From Calditrichota bacterium (lineage in GTDB: Bacteria > Zhuqueibacterota > JdFR-76 > BMS3Abin05), in the NCBI GenBank assembly GCA_013151735.1, contig JAADHR010000131.1, positions 1-24,355 on the forward strand: a DNA stretch of 24,355 nt, written 5' to 3'. Under the pieces are notes generated by a model, which did no database searches, was not told where the DNA came from, and worked only from the letters and a program-made list of their open reading frames with translations. The translations under genes were made by a program, and so were the position numbers. Numbering within the stretch: position 1 is the first letter of the stretch; each line of letters starts with the position of its first letter. Shown piece after piece: positions 2,122 through 14,608 of the stretch.

Positions 2122-3432
2122 ATGAGAAGAAAGGTCTCGGTAGAATTTGTCGCAGTTTCACTCATGCTTTTGTTCATGGTTACCCATGCCATGGCTCAGG
2201 AAAAACTTTATCGAAAGGGGCCTTATTTTATAGGCGAAATCACCAAGACCCTTTCTGCAGGGAGAGCGGGCATTCTGGACATTCGGAATAAAAAGGGGGA
2301 CATCACCGTAAAGGGGTGGGATCAACCCAGGGTTCGCATTCAGCAGAAAGTTAAAATGGATGTGATAACGAAATCAGAAGCACAAAAGGGATTTGAATTG
2401 GTGAAAAATTCACTGCATGTGTCCGGGAAACGGATTCTTGTGGACGGGCAAGACTTCCGGTCGTGGATGCGGGTGGATTTTGTTGTGATGGTACCGAGGG
2501 CGTTTAATGTAAACCTGAGGACCAGCGGGGGGGATTTAATCCTTACGAGGCTGAAGGGGAGTGAAGAACTCACGACCAGCGGCGGTGATATTGAAATCCG
2601 TCATGCAGAGGGACAAATTCAAGCCAGAACGTCCGGAGGGGATATTTTGGTAAGAGAAGCCAAAGGGACGCTTGCGCTGGCAACCTCTGGCGGCGATTTG
2701 GAACTCAGCGCAATTACAGGGGTACTGAGTGCGTCGACCTCTGGCGGCGATATTCGTCTGAAAAACTGCGGGGACAGAATTGCGGTGGCAACTTCTGGCG
2801 GGGATATTCAAATCGTAAATACGCGGGGGTATATGAATGCACGAACCTCGGGCGGGAATATTGATGTGAGAGATGCCAATGGACCCTTGCACATCACGAC
2901 GTCGGGCGGTGACATTCAGGCGGTCCGGGTCAGCGGAAATGTGACGGCCAAGACTTCCGGGGGCGACATCGGGATTGAGGATGTTTTAAAACGCGCAACG
3001 GCCATAACCTCCGGCGGGGATATTTCCTTGATGAATATAGGGGATGCGGTAGTTGCCAAAACCTCCGGAGGTGACATAGACATAAAAAATGCAGGGAGCT
3101 CCGTGAATGCAGTCACTTCCGGCGGGAATATCAGCGTTAATATGAACCCCCGCAATTTCAAAACCGATCACCATGCCAAAATCATTTCCTCCGGGGGCGA
3201 TTTGGAGCTGAGTTTGCCTGCAAAGCTCCCGGCATCCATCCATGCCGTTATTCGGATTGAGCACAAATTGTTGCAATCCTATTCCATTACATCTGACTTT
3301 CCGCTTCAGATTCAAAAAAGGGATGAAAAGGGGTGGATTAAACTCATTGAGGCAACCGGCGATATTAACGGCGGCGGAGATAAAATTGAATTGAAAACCG
3401 TTAATGGAAATATTGTGATCAAAAAGAGATGA
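2122..3432 (+). CDS. secreted DUF4097-like putative adhesin / beta-helix protein built from ~13 tandem 18-aa TSGGDI repeats
   Basis: The signal peptide MRRKVSVEFVAVSLMLLFMVTHAMA ends in an AxA site. Twelve consecutive units follow, each TSGG[DN][IL] plus 12 residues, for example TSGGDIEIRHAEGQIQAR. DUF4097 proteins typically sit downstream of sigma/anti-sigma pairs. Confidence 0.75.
   Translation: MRRKVSVEFVAVSLMLLFMVTHAMAQEKLYRKGPYFIGEITKTLSAGRAGILDIRNKKGDITVKGWDQPRVRIQQKVKMDVITKSEAQKGFELVKNSLHVSGKRILVDGQDFRSWMRVDFVVMVPRAFNVNLRTSGGDLILTRLKGSEELTTSGGDIEIRHAEGQIQARTSGGDILVREAKGTLALATSGGDLELSAITGVLSASTSGGDIRLKNCGDRIAVATSGGDIQIVNTRGYMNARTSGGNIDVRDANGPLHITTSGGDIQAVRVSGNVTAKTSGGDIGIEDVLKRATAITSGGDISLMNIGDAVVAKTSGGDIDIKNAGSSVNAVTSGGNISVNMNPRNFKTDHHAKIISSGGDLELSLPAKLPASIHAVIRIEHKLLQSYSITSDFPLQIQKRDEKGWIKLIEATGDINGGGDKIELKTVNGNIVIKKR
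2521..3215 (+). repeat. intragenic 54-nt tandem repeat array (12-13 units) encoding the TSGGDI beta-helix rungs
   Basis: The nucleotide-level motif acctctggcggcgat / acttccggcggggat recurs every 54 nt. The protein shows a strict 18-aa periodicity. Confidence 0.8.
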
Positions 3433-3455
3433 GCCTTATCGGAAAAGCGTTTGCC

Positions 3456-3515
3456 CACGAATTTCACGAATTCTGAACAAGCGATTTTGTTAAAATAAAA
3501 TTCGTGTCATTCGTG
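3456..3515. terminator. long imperfect inverted repeat between convergent genes, candidate bidirectional terminator
   Basis: cacgaatttcacgaatt (3456-3472) pairs with aattcgtgtcattcgtg (3499-3515). The ~17-bp stem has 2 mismatches and a 26-nt AT-rich loop. It lies between the DUF4097 stop (3432) and the Nramp stop (3543). Confidence 0.4.
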
Positions 3516-6789: not shown

Positions 6790-6843
6790 AATCTTAATCT
6801 TAGTCTTAATTTTAATCTTAGTCTTAATTTTAATCTTAATCTT
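6790..6843. repeat. nine tandem hexamers (consensus AATCTT) organised as 2 x 18-bp higher-order units (AATCTT-AGTCTT-AATTTT), ending 5 nt before the start codon of the giant ORF
   Basis: The sequence reads aatctt aatctt agtctt aatttt aatctt agtctt aatttt aatctt aatctt. The theme continues into the first codons (atg tcc ttc tta agg). Confidence 0.95.
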
Positions 6844-6848
6844 AAACA

Positions 6849-9800
6849 ATGTCCTTCTTAAGGCTCAAACCCTCTTTCCCATCGCTTGTCGGAGAAATTA
6901 GCAAGCGCACGGCTGATGCACCTGTCGATCCCGAACGGCGCGTGGATTTTCACATTGGGAATCCTGTGCAGGATGACTCACTCGACCGGCTCTACAACGC
7001 CGTTCTTTCCGGAGCAGAGTTTCTACAGCCTTTTGCAGAAGATTTCAACGAAAGCGATTTTCTCTCGGATCTCGATGATCCCGATCTGTCCGAATATTTT
7101 AAGCTTTTGTTTGAAACCTCCCGGAAATCGGTGGCGTATTCGCCGGCCGGCGGATTTTCGCCGGGGAACCCGGGAACCCTGACGCGCAAACTGGAGGCCT
7201 TTTTTAATCGTGTTCAAGACTCACCCACACGATACCATTTTGGGGAAAAAGGCGCTCCGGAATTTGCCCTGGCCTCCGGCGGACGCTGGCAGGCCCTAAA
7301 GCTCTTGCTGCAAGTTCTCTTTGAACAGACCGAATATACCTCAACGCAGGGTCTTGTTTTGGGCCGTTTGCCATACCCCCAAATTCTTGCGGCCTGTTCA
7401 AATCAGGTAACTCTCGTCGAGAATTCAGGCCCTTCCTTCTTTCGGAAGCTGGAAGCCGCCCGCAAAAACTCCAAATCCGACGCGCTGCTGTTTGTTTTGC
7501 TGCTTCAAAAAGTACCCCAGGAGGATCGCAAGCGCCTGGGCGACTTTCTGCAGCAGCACCCCGTTCTTTTGATCGAAGCGAACGACTCTTTGCAGGCCGA
7601 AAGTCTGGCATCTTTTTCAAAACTAAAAGGCCAAATGATTCGCATTTTGTCACCGGCTGTCATTCATCCTTACCTGAACTGGTCCAGCCTGTCTTTCATT
7701 TTGGCTCCGGCGGATGTCATTGCGGCCTTTAACCGCCAGCATTTTAAAAAGATGGGGACACCGTCGGCAAGTGAAATCAAACTGCTGAATTTCTTTTTGG
7801 CAGAAGACGGAACCCTTCTGCCAGATCGGATACCGGGGGGGAAAACGCCCGATTTTTCGCGGTCTGAAACGGCTCAGACAAAGGGCCTCGTTTCAGATGT
7901 GCCGTTTCCGGCAGGCCTGTCTACTTTTCTCAAACGTATCCCCAAAATAGCCGAAGCCATCAGTCAAAATATTCAGCACGAAGCGGCTCGTTTGACCGCC
8001 CGTTCCGAACAGATGGCGGCCCGCCTTTCCGAAAGCATCCCGGGGCGCGGAGAGAAGCAGGGATACCCGCCGGCTCAGGATCCGTTTCTTGGAAGGCGCC
8101 AGGAAGACATGGTTCGGGATTTTTTTCGGAATTTGGGGAATCCGTCGTATCAGGAGGACCTGCAAAAATCGTTTCTGTCCGTTTTTCAATACCTTCATCC
8201 GGAGTATCAGCCGGATCATCTGATTCCGGTGAGCGGTTCCGCACGTACGGCGCTGAGCGCCATGGCCGAATTTTGGGACATTCGGGAAGTGATTGTTCCC
8301 GATTTTAGCTGGACTGTAAATGATGCCTTCCCCCGGGTAACGGCCGTTCCTCTCGGGGAAAACCTTCAATTGGATGCCCGCCGTTTCACTTCAGTCCTGC
8401 AAGAGAAAATGGCGGCTGATTCCAACTGGCGTAACACCGGGGCGGTCATTTTGAACAACCCGCACAACGCGACGGGAAAAATCTGGAATGAACGGGACGT
8501 TGAAGCTGTTTTACTTTTTTGTCTGCAAAACGGAATCCGGGTGATCGACGATCTCTCCTATTCAAATGTGGTGATCGCCTCTGCGGACGCGCGGGCGGAG
8601 CGTGTTCCCGTGAAAACCCTCAAAATGCTGGCCATCGGGGCCGTTTCACAGGGTAAACTTCGCCAGAGTCAGGTACGATTTCTGGTGACACTTCAATCCA
8701 TTTCCAAAACCGATTGTAAAGCCGGTGCCCGGCTGGCCGTCTGTGACGTGCCGGACCCGGTGCTTCGGAAAAAACTTTCTGCAGCACTTGCTCCCATTCC
8801 TCCCAACCTAATGGCTGTTTTCATGAGCACGCTGTTTTACCGGCAGGGGGAGGACAAGGTTGCCCGGTTTGCCCGGCTGAGGGATTGGATTATGTCGGAG
8901 CGGACAAAAGCGCTTCAGCGGGAATTTGAATCGTTGTCGTCGGAGGCGAATCCATATCACATGATTTATGTCTCTCCCGAAGGAGCCATGTACCCGCGTC
9001 TGTTTGTAACCGACATGCCCGGCACGGTTCAGATTGAAAAAATCGCTTTTCAACTGGCCGGGCAGGGGATTGGTCTGATTCCAATGACCAATTTTTCACA
9101 AACGGTGGAAGGATTTGATCTGGCCCGGCGGACGTTTCGACTGACCCTTGGCGGGCGGTTGGAAATGGATACCATTCCTCAAAAGGTTCGGCGGTTGGTC
9201 ACGGAATTGTCGGAACAAATCCGACGCCAGGCCGAAAATTACCACTATTATTCTCTGACGGAATCCGATCTTTTTCGGCAGGTGAAAGCCGATGCGGTTA
9301 CCCAACAGCGGCTGAGGGCGGTTCGGGAAAAATCAGATGCCGTGTTTGAAGAAATTCGAAATCTGGCAGCGAGCGAATTTTTGAACGCATGTCCGGAATG
9401 GGCCCGAAAAAACATGGCCGATTCAACGGCTTTGCAGGATTTCTTGACCCAGTTTTTGCCCAGTCGCTGGAGATTTTTCCAGAACCGGCTTTCTGACTGG
9501 CTTCTGATTCGGGAGGCGGTCCGCCTGAACGCGGAGAGTCCCGTTTTCAGGACCACCGTTCAGGAAAATTTTCTGAAGGAATTACAGATGGAGTCGTCCG
9601 GAACCCGCCGAAGACGCTTTTCGAGGCGCCTGTTCGATCGAACGGTTCATCCCACACAGATGTACTCCCTTCAGGTGGAACAGTGGCTCACACGGCTGGC
9701 AAAGGCGAGTGTGGCTCCGGAGGTGTACACGCCGGTATCCGCAAAAATGCTGTTTCGGGCTCTCGTCCAGGAATACGTTGGCGAAAACGTTCCGATTTCT

Positions 9801-12497
9801 TCCCAGATGGAAGCACAGGAAGCCATTTGCGACCTGGAGGCGCTTCATCTGGCCGAAATCTTCAATGAAATCTTTTTCGGGCACTCGCCGGGCGTCGTTC
9901 TTTCTCTGTGGGGCGATTGGGACGGCAGCACCCGCCCGAGTGGTCAGGGGCACACGTTGGTCAGCGGACCGCTCATTGCCAATATTCGGGCACTAACCCT
10001 GTTGGTTCACGGTCTTCAGAAAGAAAACCGGCTGACCGAGGAGGACCTAAAGCAGTTGGAGAAGATTGGGTCGATTGAAAAGCGAATCGAAAATTTTCAA
10101 AATATTCTGCAAAAGATTACCGGTTTGACCAGCCGCCTGGAAGAAAAATACCGGAAAACCATTCCCCTGGAATATTCACCGGGCAAAATACGGCAGTTTT
10201 TACGAAAGCTCGGCCTCTTGCGCGATCCCCTGAAGTCTATTTGGAAACACAACGACCGGAACGAACGCCGGATGCAGCAGTACCGAAAGCAGCGGTCATC
10301 TGAAATCAAACAATTATTCGAAATCAATCGTATCCTGACCGGGATGGTCGAGGCGGCCGTTTCCCGGAACCGGGAAACACTGCAAACTGCGGACACGTTG
10401 TTTTATTTGCAATCCTACAAAAACTATCTCAAGCGATTTTATTTGACGCCTCGCATCCACCAAAAAATTATTCTGGATAAAGATCAGTTTACAATTGACA
10501 CAACGGTTTACAATTTGGTGGAACTCAATGTTCTGGCTAACCAGTACGGGTACGATGGATTTGTCCTGGTGATTCAGGTCAGCATGGCCAGCAGTGCCAG
10601 GGCCATTTTAACCCTTTACCAGAAATTGTGTGAGGAGAAGGCGCGGGTTTTGCGAAAAATACCGGGTCTGCATTTGCCGGATATCCGGGTTGTTCCCCTG
10701 TTTGAAGAGCTGGAGGCTATTCGGCACATTCCGGAATTCCTGGATGAAATCTGGGCGTTTTCCGAGACCACGCGCAAATTGGGTCAGCCTACGGCCGATC
10801 GTTTTCGGGAAATTATTGGGGAGTTTTTTATTGCGGGTTCTGATTTGAGCCAGCAGGTGGGACAATTGAAGGCGTATTCGCTCTATCAGGATGCGCGGGA
10901 AATGCTGGATCGCTGGATGTGGGAAAAGAACCTGTTGGGGAGAATTCGTATTAAATTCGGCTCGGGAGAATCGCCGCAACGACAGGGAGGCTATTACGAT
11001 GCCACGGGAGGCCGGCCGGTTTTTGTTGAAGAATTTTACGAAAAAAACCCAATCGTTGAGTCAATGGAACCCCTGAAAAGGGTTTCTCTCCGCCACGCCC
11101 GGTCCCCTCTGTCCGGAATTCTCAGCCACAGCGATTTTCGAACCTTCCAGTCAAATGTGATGGAACAGCTCCGCGGACTTCGGGCCCAGGAATTGGCGAA
11201 TGTTTTTAATCACATTCGAATCAAGCAGCAAGACTTCTGGACTCGCGTGCTTTCAAGGGCTTCCCGGCTTCCGGTTGAAGGAGACAAAACCTGGACGATT
11301 CTCCGCCACCTCATTCGCAGGGAGGATGATGCCGTATTTCTGGAATTTCTGGATGATGTACAGACCAATTTTAAGCAGATTGTCTACGGCCGCCCTGAAG
11401 ACATGACGGGTATTCACGTGGTTTCCTATTTCTTGTCCCGGACCCTTTTGCCGCTTCGCGACCGCCCCACGGTCCGGCCAAGCAAGGAACCGGCAGTGGA
11501 TCGAAGCCGGGAAATTGTGGAACGCCTTTCCAGTACACTGCCCCTGGCTACTCACGGAACGCTTTTGCGGGCAATCGGCCACAACAAGGCGCAGACGATT
11601 TTGCTGGGAGTCAATCAATTTACGACAGGGCTTTTCCGCGCGACTTACCAATTTTTGGAACGGGGAAACAGGAACCGACTGGAGTTGTTTCAACAACATA
11701 TTTTGCCTCATCTGCCCGTCCGGGATATTTTGAATACCCTTCGGCTGTATCACGATCCTGAATTAACCTGCGTCCGGCAGGTTGAAGATGTGTTCCCGCC
11801 GGGGAATTCGGCCCTGAAAGCCCTGAAAGAGGATCAGTCCGTTTTGAAAGATTTTGTCCCCCTGTTTCAGGAAGAATTACTGCGGAAAAACGGTGTGTTG
11901 GCAAAAGGGCAACTGCCATCCAGAAAAGAATGGGATGATCTGATTCCATTTCTTCGCCCGGATTTGGCGGTTCTTTTACAGGAAGATATTTTTAACACAC
12001 AGCCTGAAGTGCTGCCCGGATGGGCGCACGTCCCTGAAAGCCTTCGTCCGAAATGGGAAGAGGAGTTTATCAGGCGCCGGATTATTGCTGACACTCGTGA
12101 AAAAATGTGGCACATGCTCCGGGAGCCGATTTCCGAACAGGTGCGGAGTTTTATTGAACTGGCCCGGGCGGTGAAATCGCTGTTTTCGCGCGAGTCCCGA
12201 TTTGAGCCTCCAACAGGCAGTGTTTCGCGTGGGCGTGTGACGCGCCTGGCCTCCCAAATTAATGATATGCTCCGAAATGTAGTGGACGACAGCATGCGTC
12301 AGTTTTTACTGACCGCCGTGCAGTATTTTATTTATTTGCCCGAAACCATGAAAGATATTCCGGAAGAGGTGCTCCTTGCCCTGCGGGACATGGAGAAAAT
12401 TCTCAAATTGGATGAAGAGGCACTCACGCGGGAACAACAAAAAATCCTGCTTTCCTATTTTTTGAAAATGGCACGAATCAGTGGAAATAGCGGATAG
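6849..12497 (+). CDS. 1882-aa multidomain protein: degenerate class I/II aminotransferase-like fold + intact class I/II PLP aminotransferase fold + divergent phosphoenolpyruvate carboxylase (PEPC)-like C-terminal domain
   Basis: This is a single uninterrupted 5.6-kb ORF. Residues ~25-300 carry aminotransferase-like landmarks (VDFHIGNP, YSPAGG, ALASGGRWQAL) but no PLP lysine. Residues ~425-700 carry NLGNPS, IPVSGSARTAL, NNPHNATG, IDDLSYSN and SISKTDCKAGARLA, the class I NPxNPTG motif and the SxSKxxxxxGxRxG PLP-lysine motif. Residues ~790-1882 carry the PEPC motifs in canonical order: TVHPTQ (TAHPTE), SLWGDWDGSTRP (SWMGGDRDGNP), FVLVIQVSMASSARAIL (YVISMAKTPSDVL), VVPLFEELEAI (VVPLFETLDDL), IAGSDLSQQVG (IGYSDSAKDAG), KFGSGESPQRQGG (FHGRGGSIGRGG), LLRAIGHNKAQTILLG (LRAIPWIFAWTQNRLML) and a C-terminal ...ARISGNSG (...AGMRNTG). 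Confidence 0.8.
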   Translation: MSFLRLKPSFPSLVGEISKRTADAPVDPERRVDFHIGNPVQDDSLDRLYNAVLSGAEFLQPFAEDFNESDFLSDLDDPDLSEYFKLLFETSRKSVAYSPAGGFSPGNPGTLTRKLEAFFNRVQDSPTRYHFGEKGAPEFALASGGRWQALKLLLQVLFEQTEYTSTQGLVLGRLPYPQILAACSNQVTLVENSGPSFFRKLEAARKNSKSDALLFVLLLQKVPQEDRKRLGDFLQQHPVLLIEANDSLQAESLASFSKLKGQMIRILSPAVIHPYLNWSSLSFILAPADVIAAFNRQHFKKMGTPSASEIKLLNFFLAEDGTLLPDRIPGGKTPDFSRSETAQTKGLVSDVPFPAGLSTFLKRIPKIAEAISQNIQHEAARLTARSEQMAARLSESIPGRGEKQGYPPAQDPFLGRRQEDMVRDFFRNLGNPSYQEDLQKSFLSVFQYLHPEYQPDHLIPVSGSARTALSAMAEFWDIREVIVPDFSWTVNDAFPRVTAVPLGENLQLDARRFTSVLQEKMAADSNWRNTGAVILNNPHNATGKIWNERDVEAVLLFCLQNGIRVIDDLSYSNVVIASADARAERVPVKTLKMLAIGAVSQGKLRQSQVRFLVTLQSISKTDCKAGARLAVCDVPDPVLRKKLSAALAPIPPNLMAVFMSTLFYRQGEDKVARFARLRDWIMSERTKALQREFESLSSEANPYHMIYVSPEGAMYPRLFVTDMPGTVQIEKIAFQLAGQGIGLIPMTNFSQTVEGFDLARRTFRLTLGGRLEMDTIPQKVRRLVTELSEQIRRQAENYHYYSLTESDLFRQVKADAVTQQRLRAVREKSDAVFEEIRNLAASEFLNACPEWARKNMADSTALQDFLTQFLPSRWRFFQNRLSDWLLIREAVRLNAESPVFRTTVQENFLKELQMESSGTRRRRFSRRLFDRTVHPTQMYSLQVEQWLTRLAKASVAPEVYTPVSAKMLFRALVQEYVGENVPISSQMEAQEAICDLEALHLAEIFNEIFFGHSPGVVLSLWGDWDGSTRPSGQGHTLVSGPLIANIRALTLLVHGLQKENRLTEEDLKQLEKIGSIEKRIENFQNILQKITGLTSRLEEKYRKTIPLEYSPGKIRQFLRKLGLLRDPLKSIWKHNDRNERRMQQYRKQRSSEIKQLFEINRILTGMVEAAVSRNRETLQTADTLFYLQSYKNYLKRFYLTPRIHQKIILDKDQFTIDTTVYNLVELNVLANQYGYDGFVLVIQVSMASSARAILTLYQKLCEEKARVLRKIPGLHLPDIRVVPLFEELEAIRHIPEFLDEIWAFSETTRKLGQPTADRFREIIGEFFIAGSDLSQQVGQLKAYSLYQDAREMLDRWMWEKNLLGRIRIKFGSGESPQRQGGYYDATGGRPVFVEEFYEKNPIVESMEPLKRVSLRHARSPLSGILSHSDFRTFQSNVMEQLRGLRAQELANVFNHIRIKQQDFWTRVLSRASRLPVEGDKTWTILRHLIRREDDAVFLEFLDDVQTNFKQIVYGRPEDMTGIHVVSYFLSRTLLPLRDRPTVRPSKEPAVDRSREIVERLSSTLPLATHGTLLRAIGHNKAQTILLGVNQFTTGLFRATYQFLERGNRNRLELFQQHILPHLPVRDILNTLRLYHDPELTCVRQVEDVFPPGNSALKALKEDQSVLKDFVPLFQEELLRKNGVLAKGQLPSRKEWDDLIPFLRPDLAVLLQEDIFNTQPEVLPGWAHVPESLRPKWEEEFIRRRIIADTREKMWHMLREPISEQVRSFIELARAVKSLFSRESRFEPPTGSVSRGRVTRLASQINDMLRNVVDDSMRQFLLTAVQYFIYLPETMKDIPEEVLLALRDMEKILKLDEEALTREQQKILLSYFLKMARISGNSG

Positions 12498-12501
12498 AAG
12501 A

Positions 12502-13030
12502 AAGACACACCCCTAAATCCGCCTCTTAATAGAGGGGACTTTGGTGGGGTGGTCTTGGGGAGAGCGGGGAAAAAGGTGAAATGCGCTGTTTTTGGTAAGA
12601 TTTTAGGACTTTGCAAGAATAAAAATCCCCTCTTGAGAGGGGTGGTCTGCCTCCGGCAGAGCGGGGTGTGTGACGGTGTTTATTTTTGAGGGTAGTATTT
12701 GAATTTCAAATGGGAAAAGTAAAAGGACACACCCCTAAATCCCCTCTTAATAGAGGGGACTTTGGTGGGGTGGTTTTGGGGAGAGCAGGAAAAAAGTGAA
12801 ATGCGCTGTTTTTGGTAAGATTTTAGGATTTTGCAAGAATTAAAAATCCCCTCTTGAGAGGGGTGGTCGGCCTCCGGCAGAGCGGGGTGTGTGACGGTGT
12901 TTATTTTTGAGGGTAGTATTTGAATTTCAAATGGGAAAAGTGAAAGGACACACCCCTAAATCCCCTCTTAATAGAGGGGACTTTAGTTAAGTGGCTTTGG
13001 GAAAGAAGGGGAAAAAGGGGAAAAGAATTA
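12502..13030. repeat. ~221-bp tandem direct repeat, 2 full near-identical copies (~96%) plus a diverging third partial copy, filling the intergenic region
   Basis: Unit starts (gacacacccc) are at 12504, 12726 and 12947. Each unit has two GC-rich hairpins: cccctc-ttaata-gagggg and cccctc-ttga-gagggg. The second is flanked by an A/T run, giving a minus-strand intrinsic-terminator shape. Each unit also has 9-10-bp terminal inverted repeats gacacacccc...ggggtgtgtgac, a T-tract, and a perfect 15-bp palindrome ATTTGAATTTCAAAT. Confidence 0.9.
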
Positions 13031-13122
13031 CCCCATTCGGGTAAAAATCTGCTTCACACATCTTACATCATTCATCCCCTGATTTGTCAGGGAATACTAC
13101 TCACCCTATCGAGGAGTTAAAA

Positions 13123-14436
13123 ATGAAACCAGAGATTTACGTCATCAGTTTGGGCGCGGATAAACCCAAAGGTGTACCGGGATGGCCAAATGCCGAATTG
13201 GATCCAAAGGAACGGGCAGCAGAACTTTTCAAAAAGGTGAAATCCTTTTTCCCCAATTACACCTTTAGCGGCGGTGAGCTTTTGGACAGTACAAACGATG
13301 CGTTCAATGCATTTAAGGCCCGCGTCGAAAAGGCCCAACCGGATGGTGTGCTCATCTTCGGGCTGGCCATTCCACACCATACCGTGAAGCGTTTTGGTGA
13401 ATTAAACATACCCATGCTCTGGGTGAATGATCCTTATGGCGGCGATCTTTATTATTTGGACGCGATGGAGGTGGGACTTCAGGAGAAATGGCCGTTTGTG
13501 GGGTTGAGTTCGTCCCGTTTTTCCGATATTGGGAAAAAACTGCGTTATTTCGACGTCATTCGTGGATTGCGCGACTCCAGAATTCTGGCCGTCCGGGATC
13601 GTGCGTATCCGGCAGACTATGTGGAAAAAATCAGGCGAAACCTGGGGGTCGAGATTCTTGTTTTGAATCACGAGGCCTTTAATGCCGTGTACGAGAATGT
13701 GTCTGAGGAAGAAGCCAAACAGTGGGCAGAGCGCTGGATTTCGGAAGCAGAAAAGGTGATGGAACCGCAATTTGAGGATGTTCTGGCGGGAGCCAAAACC
13801 TACCTGGCCCTGAAGGAACTCATGGCCCGGGAAAAGGCCAACACCGTCACGGTGGATTGCCTTGATTTGGTTTACAGAAAAAAGATTTCCGCCTATCCCT
13901 GTCTGGCGTTTTTTCAGTTGAACAATGAGGGCTCCACCGGTATTTGCGAGGCAGACATCGATTCGGCCCTCACGCAATTGATTATCCGCTTTTTGGCTGA
14001 ACGTCCGGGGTATGTTTCCGATCCTGTGATTGATCAGGGAACCGGACAGATTGTTTACGCCCATTGTGTAGCGGCCTCCAGGATGAAAGGGCCGAAGCGG
14101 GAAGCCATGCCGTACATTTTGCGGTCGCATGCCGAGGACAATTCGGGCGCCTCGGTTCAGGTAAAAATGACGCCGGGTGAAATTATGTCGACCATAAAAT
14201 TTGATATCAAAACCAATCGGATTGCGTTTCACAAGGGTAAAATCGCAGGCAACATTGACACCGATCGGGCCTGCCGAACAAAGGTAGCCGTGGAAGTGGA
14301 CACGGACGCCCTGGCCCGAAATTACCAGGTGTCAAAATTTGGCTGGCACCGCGTTTCCTTTTACGGCGACTGGGAGACGGAAATCCGCGAGTTGGCTCAG
14401 CTCATGCAGTGGGAATTTTGGGACGAATTAAAATAG
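13123..14436 (+). CDS. hypothetical 438-aa cytoplasmic protein of unknown function (weak, unverified resemblance to sugar-isomerase-like folds)
   Basis: GAGGAG lies 6 nt upstream of the ATG at 13123. The TTG at 13084 is a less likely start. The composition is protein-like, and the internal antisense ORF 13402-14232 looks like a shadow. No motif I can assign with confidence. CEADIDSAL and VYAHCVA are only loosely reminiscent of FucI/AraA-type metal-site motifs. Confidence 0.55.
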   Translation: MKPEIYVISLGADKPKGVPGWPNAELDPKERAAELFKKVKSFFPNYTFSGGELLDSTNDAFNAFKARVEKAQPDGVLIFGLAIPHHTVKRFGELNIPMLWVNDPYGGDLYYLDAMEVGLQEKWPFVGLSSSRFSDIGKKLRYFDVIRGLRDSRILAVRDRAYPADYVEKIRRNLGVEILVLNHEAFNAVYENVSEEEAKQWAERWISEAEKVMEPQFEDVLAGAKTYLALKELMAREKANTVTVDCLDLVYRKKISAYPCLAFFQLNNEGSTGICEADIDSALTQLIIRFLAERPGYVSDPVIDQGTGQIVYAHCVAASRMKGPKREAMPYILRSHAEDNSGASVQVKMTPGEIMSTIKFDIKTNRIAFHKGKIAGNIDTDRACRTKVAVEVDTDALARNYQVSKFGWHRVSFYGDWETEIRELAQLMQWEFWDELK

Positions 14437-14608
14437 GCCAAAAAATATTGCAGCCAGAGTGCGGAGGAGATTTTCTTATGTTCAGTCAAAAAACAATGAA
14501 TTAAACGAATCGCCCTGATTTTTGTTTTAATAAAATCGCTTTGTGAAAATTCGTGGAATGGGTGGAAAAAAAGCTTTTTAAAGTAAACTCGTTCCTGGAT
14601 CCTGATTC

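Follow-up and report, generated by a model that had tools for sequence, protein, structure and literature searches.

What is the tandem structured repeat that separates two genes in a 24,355-nt stretch of DNA from a Calditrichota bacterium (hereafter, the window)? The upstream gene, termed the giant gene, encodes a protein of 1882 amino acids with an aminotransferase class I/II domain (6849-12497, plus strand). The downstream gene, a neighbor outside the repeat element, encodes a 437-amino acid protein (13123-14436, plus strand) that has no Pfam match and whose homologues are named "L-fucose isomerase-like protein" by JGI. A first-pass annotation had proposed tandem small RNA (sRNA) genes or nested MITE-like insertions. 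Our analysis indicates instead that the array is probably a recent local tandem duplication of one interspersed, hairpin-forming element resembling REPINs and BIMEs, whose family is tied to genes for DUF559 proteins. The rest of the window is ordinary chromosome, with genes for an ECF sigma factor, an Nramp-Usp protein, a two-component sigma-54 system and sugar-modifying enzymes. No named relative of the Nramp-Usp protein exceeds 74% identity, and the nearest ones are from a mixture of FCB-group and other MAGs.

Tandem Repeats Finder places the array at positions 12504 to 12984, with a period of 221, 2.2 copies, 96% matches and a score of 895. Thus, the ~221-bp tandem repeat of 2.3 copies described earlier is real. 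Copy 1 (12504-12724) and copy 2 (12726-12946) are nearly identical, as had been observed, with 6 mismatches and 4 gap columns in their alignment rather than about eight differences. Each unit consists of a 167-nt element bounded by the inverted 9-mers ACACACCCC and GGGGTGTGT, followed by a 55-nt linker. The inverted boundaries that had been recognized are exact in both full copies. The 17-mer GACACACCCCTAAATCC occurs three times, versus 0.06 occurrences expected by chance, and the 24-kb window contains no further copy of the element outside the array.

Copy 1 of the composite element (12505-12671, plus strand, 167 nt) has a left and a right arm. The left arm (plus strand) consists of the head ACACACCCC (12505-12513), TAAAT and hairpin P1b (12519-12537). 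Beyond an internal spacer (12538-12620, plus strand) lies the right arm (plus strand), which consists of AAAAAT (12621-12626), hairpin P1 (12627-12642), TG, the variable hairpin P2 (12645-12662) and the tail GGGGTGTGT (12663-12671). Hence each unit carries three hairpins, where two stem-loops had been counted: P1b is CC(G)CCTC-TTAATA-GAGGGG, P1 is CCCCTC-TTGA-GAGGGG and P2 is CTGCC-TCC-GGCAG. In copy 2 (12727-12892, plus strand), the corresponding positions are 12727-12735 for the head, 12741-12758 for P1b, 12848-12863 for P1, 12866-12883 for P2 and 12884-12892 for the tail; a single T-to-G change in its P2 breaks one pair. The third copy (12948-13023, plus strand) is indeed decaying, as had been stated. 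It retains only the left arm (head 12948-12956, P1b 12962-12979), matches perfectly for ~40 nt, continues for ~45 nt at ~75% identity to the spacer until ~13023, and lacks the right arm.

Linker 1 (12672-12726), which was co-duplicated with the element, carries sigma-70-like hexamers (TTGAAA-16-AAAAAT) on the minus strand at 12709..12682, and linker 2 (12893-12947, also 55 nt) carries promoter-like hexamers on the same strand at 12930..12903. The minus strand also reads CCCCTC-TCAA-GAGGGG followed by ATTTTTA in both units (12642..12627 and 12863..12848), and P1 scores as an intrinsic terminator, which bears out the Rho-independent terminator and T-tract noted previously. The unit folds better than shuffled sequences on both strands, with z-scores of -3.3 and, for the minus strand, -3.8.

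The internal spacer has features of its own. At 12534-12567 and 12755-12788, four G4 runs on the plus strand (GGGG-N8-GGGG-N7-GGGG-N5-GGGG) correspond to a canonical G-quadruplex pattern, and the 500-nt bin that holds them has a GC skew of 0.345, the maximum in the window. This stretch aligns with the right arm (AAATCC.CCTCTT..GAGGGG..TGGTCT..AGAGCGGGG), which points to an older internal sub-repeat within the unit.

The history of the array can be followed in related loci. The gene order Band_7, giant gene, 437-amino acid gene is conserved in five of them (L001 to L005). In L005, whose neighboring protein is 85% identical, a single orthologous copy (8090-8262, 74% identity) is located at the same distance from the giant-gene stop codon as in the window, where the first repeat head begins 7 nt beyond the TAG at 12495-12497. 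This copy retains the 25 nt around P1 and the 12-nt tail sequence without change while its surroundings have fallen to ~70%, and the right arm is the best-conserved part. Its P2 differs from that of the window by two compensatory pair changes and a new loop, and the linker is not conserved. L001 (90%) retains only the head and a small hairpin, and in L002 and L003 (80%) the element is absent and the spacers are unrelated. The element is therefore present in the window and L005, a remnant in L001 and missing from L002 and L003, at orthologous sites whose intergenic sequences have diverged too far for an empty site to be defined. The lone L005 copy at the matching position after the stop codon implies one ancestral copy in the lineages of L005 and the window. 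Because L005 has only that one, the window array is a younger duplication of element plus linker, rather than the nested insertions proposed by the first-pass annotation.

Other repeats and structured sequences occur nearby. In L005 the same intergenic region contains, at ~8400-8560, a different long inverted repeat (AATCCCGAATATCGAAATTTGAAACAAATCC... / ...GGATTTCGGATTTCG), and the spacer between the two genes seems to collect repeats. The leader of the 437-amino acid gene (13047-13092; ATCTGCTTCACACATCTTACA followed by the hairpin CCCTGA-TTTG-TCAGGG at 13077-13092) is kept in L005 at ~8634-8680, whereas the rest of the spacer differs; this leader is a possible 5' UTR element. Elsewhere in the window, a 54-nt sequence is found in inverted orientation at 3450-3503 and 14517-14570, with 78% complementarity, each time between convergent genes; the pair may belong to a further family of small repeats or be a bidirectional terminator common to both sites. 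At 6790-6845 there are 3.1 tandem copies of an 18-nt unit, AATTTTAATCTTAGTCTT, and this run stops 4 nt short of the giant-gene start codon. A 54-nt (18-amino acid) periodic repeat occurs at least seven times at 2623-3132, inside a 436-amino acid ORF (2122-3432) without a Pfam match.

The first-pass annotation had raised the prospect of dispersed copies, and these were found. The matches listed for the 21-mer ATCCCCTCTTGAGAGGGGTGG, the family probe common to the window and L005, amount to at least 120 contigs from metagenomes and at least 120 from GTDB species representatives. The genome matches listed cover at least 15 phylum-level groups; those named among them are Verrucomicrobia, Desulfobacterales, Cloacimonadota, Aminicenantes, Glassbacteria, Desantisbacteria, Bacteroidota, Ignavibacteria, Rhodothermaceae, Balneolaceae, Pelosinus, Chlamydiota, Dehalococcoidia, Zixibacteria, Cyanobacteria and several candidate-phyla-radiation groups. 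Three cultured isolates are among the matches listed (Mucilaginibacter oryzae DSM 19975, Aliifodinibius salipaludis WN023 and Pelosinus baikalensis Bkl1), and several genomes contribute 5 to 14 matching contigs each to the first 120 listed. The two bounding 10/12-mers at fixed spacing have no match in species-representative genomes, and so the long-spacer form of the window is missing there. The core is also absent from the 2.9 million viral contigs and 72,556 plasmids scanned, which leaves a phage or plasmid vehicle unsupported. A 25-nt core that is nearly identical across phyla, combined with this absence from viral contigs and plasmids, is not explained by ordinary selfish spread.

The family copies define a module, which corresponds to the right arm of the window element: (A)AAT, CCCCTCTTGAGAGGGG, TG, the variable hairpin P2, C and GGGGTGTGT. 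Nearly all matches continue with a hairpin and GGGGTGTGT, both of which lie outside the query, and among 273 unique right-arm copies conservation ends at AAAT on the 5' side and directly after the tail on the 3' side. P2 is ~10 to 60 nt long and occurs in 187 distinct versions, almost always as a hairpin; its pairing is 93% Watson-Crick, with a median z-score of -3.0 versus shuffles of these 187 hairpins. A second module type lacks P2 (CCCCTC-TATTAA-GAGGGG-ATTTA-GGGGTGTGT) and, when reversed, is the left arm of the window element. The usual higher-order form is a doublet, ACACACCCC...GGGGTGTGT, in which the P1 hairpins face one another. The head-to-tail doublets number 54, of which 31 are 100 to 120 nt long. 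The 167-nt element in the window is a long-spacer doublet, and the one in L017 is built alike. Single modules also occur head to tail without spacers, at a period of 45 to 48 nt, in L012 (44-140), L095 (217-310) and L069 (4535-4620), where they abut as ...GGGGTGTGT-(AT)AAAT-CCCCTC....

An origin of P2 by insertion into a P2-less ancestor with duplication of GGGGTG was set aside, as only two P2-less copies were found. The idea that the modules are transposon ends was rejected, in that the 1.7-kb interval between inverted modules in L182 contains the housekeeping gene miaB. No target-site duplication was found, the flanks beyond AAAT and the tail being random and unduplicated, and no filled and empty pair was found at nucleotide resolution; mobility is thus deduced from distribution only. 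Of the MITE-like reading, the dispersed palindromic family stands, but a classical MITE does not fit, because target-site duplications and transposase-derived terminal repeats are lacking.

Roughly 12% of copies reside inside long ORFs, where they are translated in frame, for example in gatB (L026), in a restriction/methylase-like gene (L116) and in condensation domains of nonribosomal peptide synthetases (NRPS; L045, L137 and L226). The three NRPS modules, from Aminicenantes and a metagenome, add ..IHTP..HPSQEGI.. just before MHHxISDG at the same position in three diverged domains, and their core is identical where the flanking codons have diverged. In L026 (1057-1108) the module contributes ~14 to 17 residues, SPLERGGSSDSEGRGV, to a gatB-like ORF before the motif QETRGW. 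Removal of 42 nt would restore the typical ..LEGGVLRQETR.. there, which suggests that the tail resembles the original target at this site. That the tail is part of the target site is suggested by gatB and is unsupported by the NRPS cases. The extra in-frame segments in gatB and the NRPS domains suggest insertion.

These data bear on whether the array encodes RNA. If it consisted of tandem sRNA genes on the minus strand, a promoter in each linker would direct transcription from near GTCACACACCCC through P2 to P1 and its U-tract, yielding an RNA of ~55 nt with a C-rich 5' seed. The promoter-like sites and terminator-like hairpins are indeed correctly ordered on the minus strand of both units, the right arm is the part best conserved between the window and L005, and the minus-strand fold has a z-score of -3.8. 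However, the two promoter-like sites compare with 1.0 expected by chance, and the linker that contains them is not conserved in L005. Moreover, hundreds of module copies, in both orientations and also inside ORFs, occur without such a promoter: 116 modules have a same-strand ORF end upstream and 97 a convergent one. Hence promoter and terminator are not conserved together on one strand. RNA would be expected to favor G.U over A.C mismatches in P2, but 169 distinct P2 stems contain 52 G.T and 44 A.C mismatches, with no strand-specific wobble bias (stems were counted directly, as an alignment of modules of mixed length lost the P2 register). Rfam covariance models find nothing at the gathering score, whether in the window or across 84 kb of sequence from module-rich loci, and permissive thresholds yield only chance-level sub-threshold matches in both. 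Mixed orientations, in-frame copies, absence of a G.T excess, the unconserved linker and the lack of an Rfam match together leave the sRNA reading unsupported, and we regard it as improbable.

A cis-acting structure at the 3' end of the giant-gene mRNA, acting as a terminator or stabilizer and as an insulator ahead of the downstream gene, could also have been selected locally, with its resemblance to the family being incidental. In the window, L005 and L001 alike, the left arm starts 7 nt past the stop codon. ACTTT comes after its hairpin, and many family copies start a few nucleotides after a stop codon; effects of this terminator or stabilizer type are known for REP elements in E. coli. Such selection is nevertheless unlikely, because the left hairpin has degenerated in L005 and is missing from L001, L002 and L003, copies across the family are oriented without regard to the upstream gene, and the best terminator of the unit points the wrong way for both neighbors. 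Simple duplication of neutral intergenic DNA with chance hairpins and no family behind it would account for an array that is the sole one in the window and whose copies are 96% identical, as a young duplication predicts. Yet core and tail recur exactly in at least 240 unrelated contigs, and the orthologous copy kept both as its surroundings fell to ~70%. The family matches refute neutral duplication as a complete explanation, which makes it extremely improbable; they leave the duplication step intact.

ORFs within 1.5 kb of modules were clustered, and the top cluster is a protein of 120 to 140 amino acids from 14 loci, which matches Pfam DUF559 (PF04480) with an E-value of 7e-33 and PDB entry 3hrl with an E-value of 8e-19. 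By tblastn, DUF559 is present in 17 of about 240 module-selected loci, and all 17 genes adjoin modules. In the orientation of the gene, the layout is AAAT-P1-P2-GGGGTGTGT, 1 to 39 nt, the ORF, 1 to 31 nt, and ACACACCCC-P2'-P1-ATTT. GGGGTGTGT precedes the start codon at this distance in 13 of 15 loci, and ACACACCCC follows the stop codon in 10 of 15; L057 and L105 have whole doublets on either side of the gene. The association also holds in reverse. A protein search retrieved 3437 DUF559 homologues at E <= 1e-10, and all five loci chosen from five phyla by protein homology, regardless of DNA motifs, carry GGGGTGTGT and/or ACACACCCC plus CCCCTC...GAGGGG hairpins next to the gene. The window and L001 to L006 contain no DUF559 gene. 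The two modules around one DUF559 gene bear different P2 hairpins. Because the tails of the usual doublet point outward and DUF559 is located between inward-facing tails, doublets did not arise simply by deletion from a module-gene-module unit.

No transposase was associated with modules by the same ORF clustering, and a RAYT partner was rejected, since Y1-like genes are rare (4 weak, non-adjacent matches in 261 loci). In L249, an Elusimicrobiota MAG, a RAYT/IS200-like Y1 transposase ORF interrupted by short tandem peptide repeats (1-554) lies 1 kb upstream of DUF559; such adjacency of Y1 genes to modules is not general. Many DUF559 homologues are found on contigs shorter than 1.5 kb, which would follow if short-read assemblies break at the flanking repeats. 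Identical DUF559 proteins were seen in one genomic context each, which resembles single-copy RAYTs more than insertion sequences and does not point to ongoing homing. One member of the Vsr/DUF559 clade is a homing endonuclease of a group I intron (PMC3424549), and a selfish or DNA-targeting role is therefore plausible.

The nearest NCBIfam model to the module-linked DUF559 proteins is the YcjD family. In E. coli, ycjD is the stand-alone DUF559 gene, and in strain K-12 it resides beside fabI. At ~140 to 200 nt downstream of ycjD in K-12 there is a GC-rich palindromic repeat, CCCCTCGCCCCTCTGGGGAGAGGGTTAGGGTGAGGGG, with CCCCTC...GAGGGG stems, and E. coli genomes carry this 64-mer at a median of 16 places. 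We take this repeat to be BoxC, which reportedly was first described next to envM/fabI. BoxC is present in 22 to 32 copies of ~56 bp (PMC2267715). The literature searched contains no link between BoxC and YcjD, and we treat the connection as a lead. At the same locus (L261; NC_000913.3, 1351040-1351406), ~50 nt of the ycjD 3' end (GAGACGGTGCTGGAGAATATTC...) are duplicated beside the BoxC-like repeat, which hints at a past rearrangement at the gene end.

As an interspersed element of this family, the window repeat is a doublet of inverted modules: a left arm of ACACACCCC and a hairpin, and a right arm of AAAT, CCCCTCTTGAGAGGGG, TG, a variable hairpin, C and GGGGTGTGT, with a spacer between. The ancestor shared by the window and L005 lineages presumably had a single copy just past the giant-gene stop codon. 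Unequal exchange or replication slippage between two left-arm copies would then most likely have duplicated the element together with its 55-nt linker, with the partial third copy probably providing the downstream homology for an unequal exchange that duplicated the 221-bp unit. The hairpins at this locus may also serve as terminators or stabilizers of RNA ends, presumably as a side effect rather than the reason for the sequence. In itself, the window locus is selfish or structural DNA of an ordinary kind.

RAYT transposases are thought to spread or maintain REPINs. In a similar fashion, the putative Vsr-like, PD-(D/E)XK nuclease encoded between inward-facing tails (GGGGTGTGT, gene, ACACACCCC) may recognize or nick the modules and so spread or maintain them; the genetic layout is what suggests this role. 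Apart from REP-RAYT, we know of no enzyme that makes or keeps palindromic repeats of the REP, BIME, BoxC or RPE type. The literature searched contains no description of the repeat family, and both the family and its tie to DUF559 appear to be undescribed there. We advance only tentatively the broader proposal that modules and stand-alone DUF559 genes form an undescribed pan-bacterial partnership of repeat and nuclease, a PD-(D/E)XK counterpart of REPIN-RAYT, of which E. coli BoxC and YcjD may be a diverged branch. If this is true, putative recognition by the nuclease of the invariant CCCCTCTTGAGAGGGG hairpin and/or the GGGGTGTGT tail would explain the near-constancy of the 25-nt core across more than 15 phylum-level groups, and DUF559 and BoxC would both gain a function.

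A repeat with an almost invariant core is thus common to very distant phyla and consistently surrounds a small nuclease of unknown function. The result is a hypothesis that can be tested directly for DUF559, a large orphan family with E. coli YcjD among its members, and that may extend to BoxC. There are also practical consequences, because the repeat breaks metagenome assemblies, inserts peptide segments into enzymes such as GatB and NRPS condensation domains, and can pass for sRNA genes, as in the earlier reading of the array.

Several known systems share some of these characteristics. The array is not a CRISPR array, as the first-pass annotation had correctly concluded: unique spacers are missing, and everything between the repeats is duplicated too, with a 221-bp period. 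Tandem sRNA genes likewise form near-identical structured units in tandem between two genes, but the family described here is free of strand or orientation constraint, lacks an Rfam match and has copies inside ORFs. RPEs, and MITEs such as Correia/NEMIS, are small non-coding palindromes that can sit in frame in genes. However, RPEs are restricted to one genus whereas this family spans many phyla, and the transposase-derived terminal inverted repeats and target-site duplications of a classical MITE are not seen.

The Vsr-like (EDxHD) homing endonucleases (PMC3424549) belong to the same nuclease clade as DUF559 and likewise are encoded by small, selfish-looking genes. The palindromic context of tail, gene and head could be a split recognition site for such an enzyme, although no intron or intein is involved here. 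BIMEs and BoxC of E. coli resemble the family in that palindromic units alternate in orientation, form mosaics and are iterated in tandem, and the BoxC-like DNA by ycjD has CCCCTC...GAGGGG stems. For BoxC, sequence likeness is restricted to these CCCCTC/GAGGGG stems, and the repeat is present on only one side of ycjD.

The REP/REPIN-RAYT system differs in several respects. Its tags are GTAG or CGTC, which are absent here, where ACACACCCC/GGGGTGTGT takes their place; the module described here has two hairpins, one invariant in sequence and one variable; the gene between these modules encodes a PD-(D/E)XK DUF559 nuclease rather than a Y1 (HUH) transposase; and the module core hardly differs from phylum to phylum, in contrast to the lineage-specific REP sequences. 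In both systems, however, short GC-rich palindromes with a conserved single-stranded "tag," usually arranged as inverted doublets, are present in many chromosomal copies, mostly in intergenic regions, and both include a small nuclease gene, seemingly about one per genome, with repeats on both sides.
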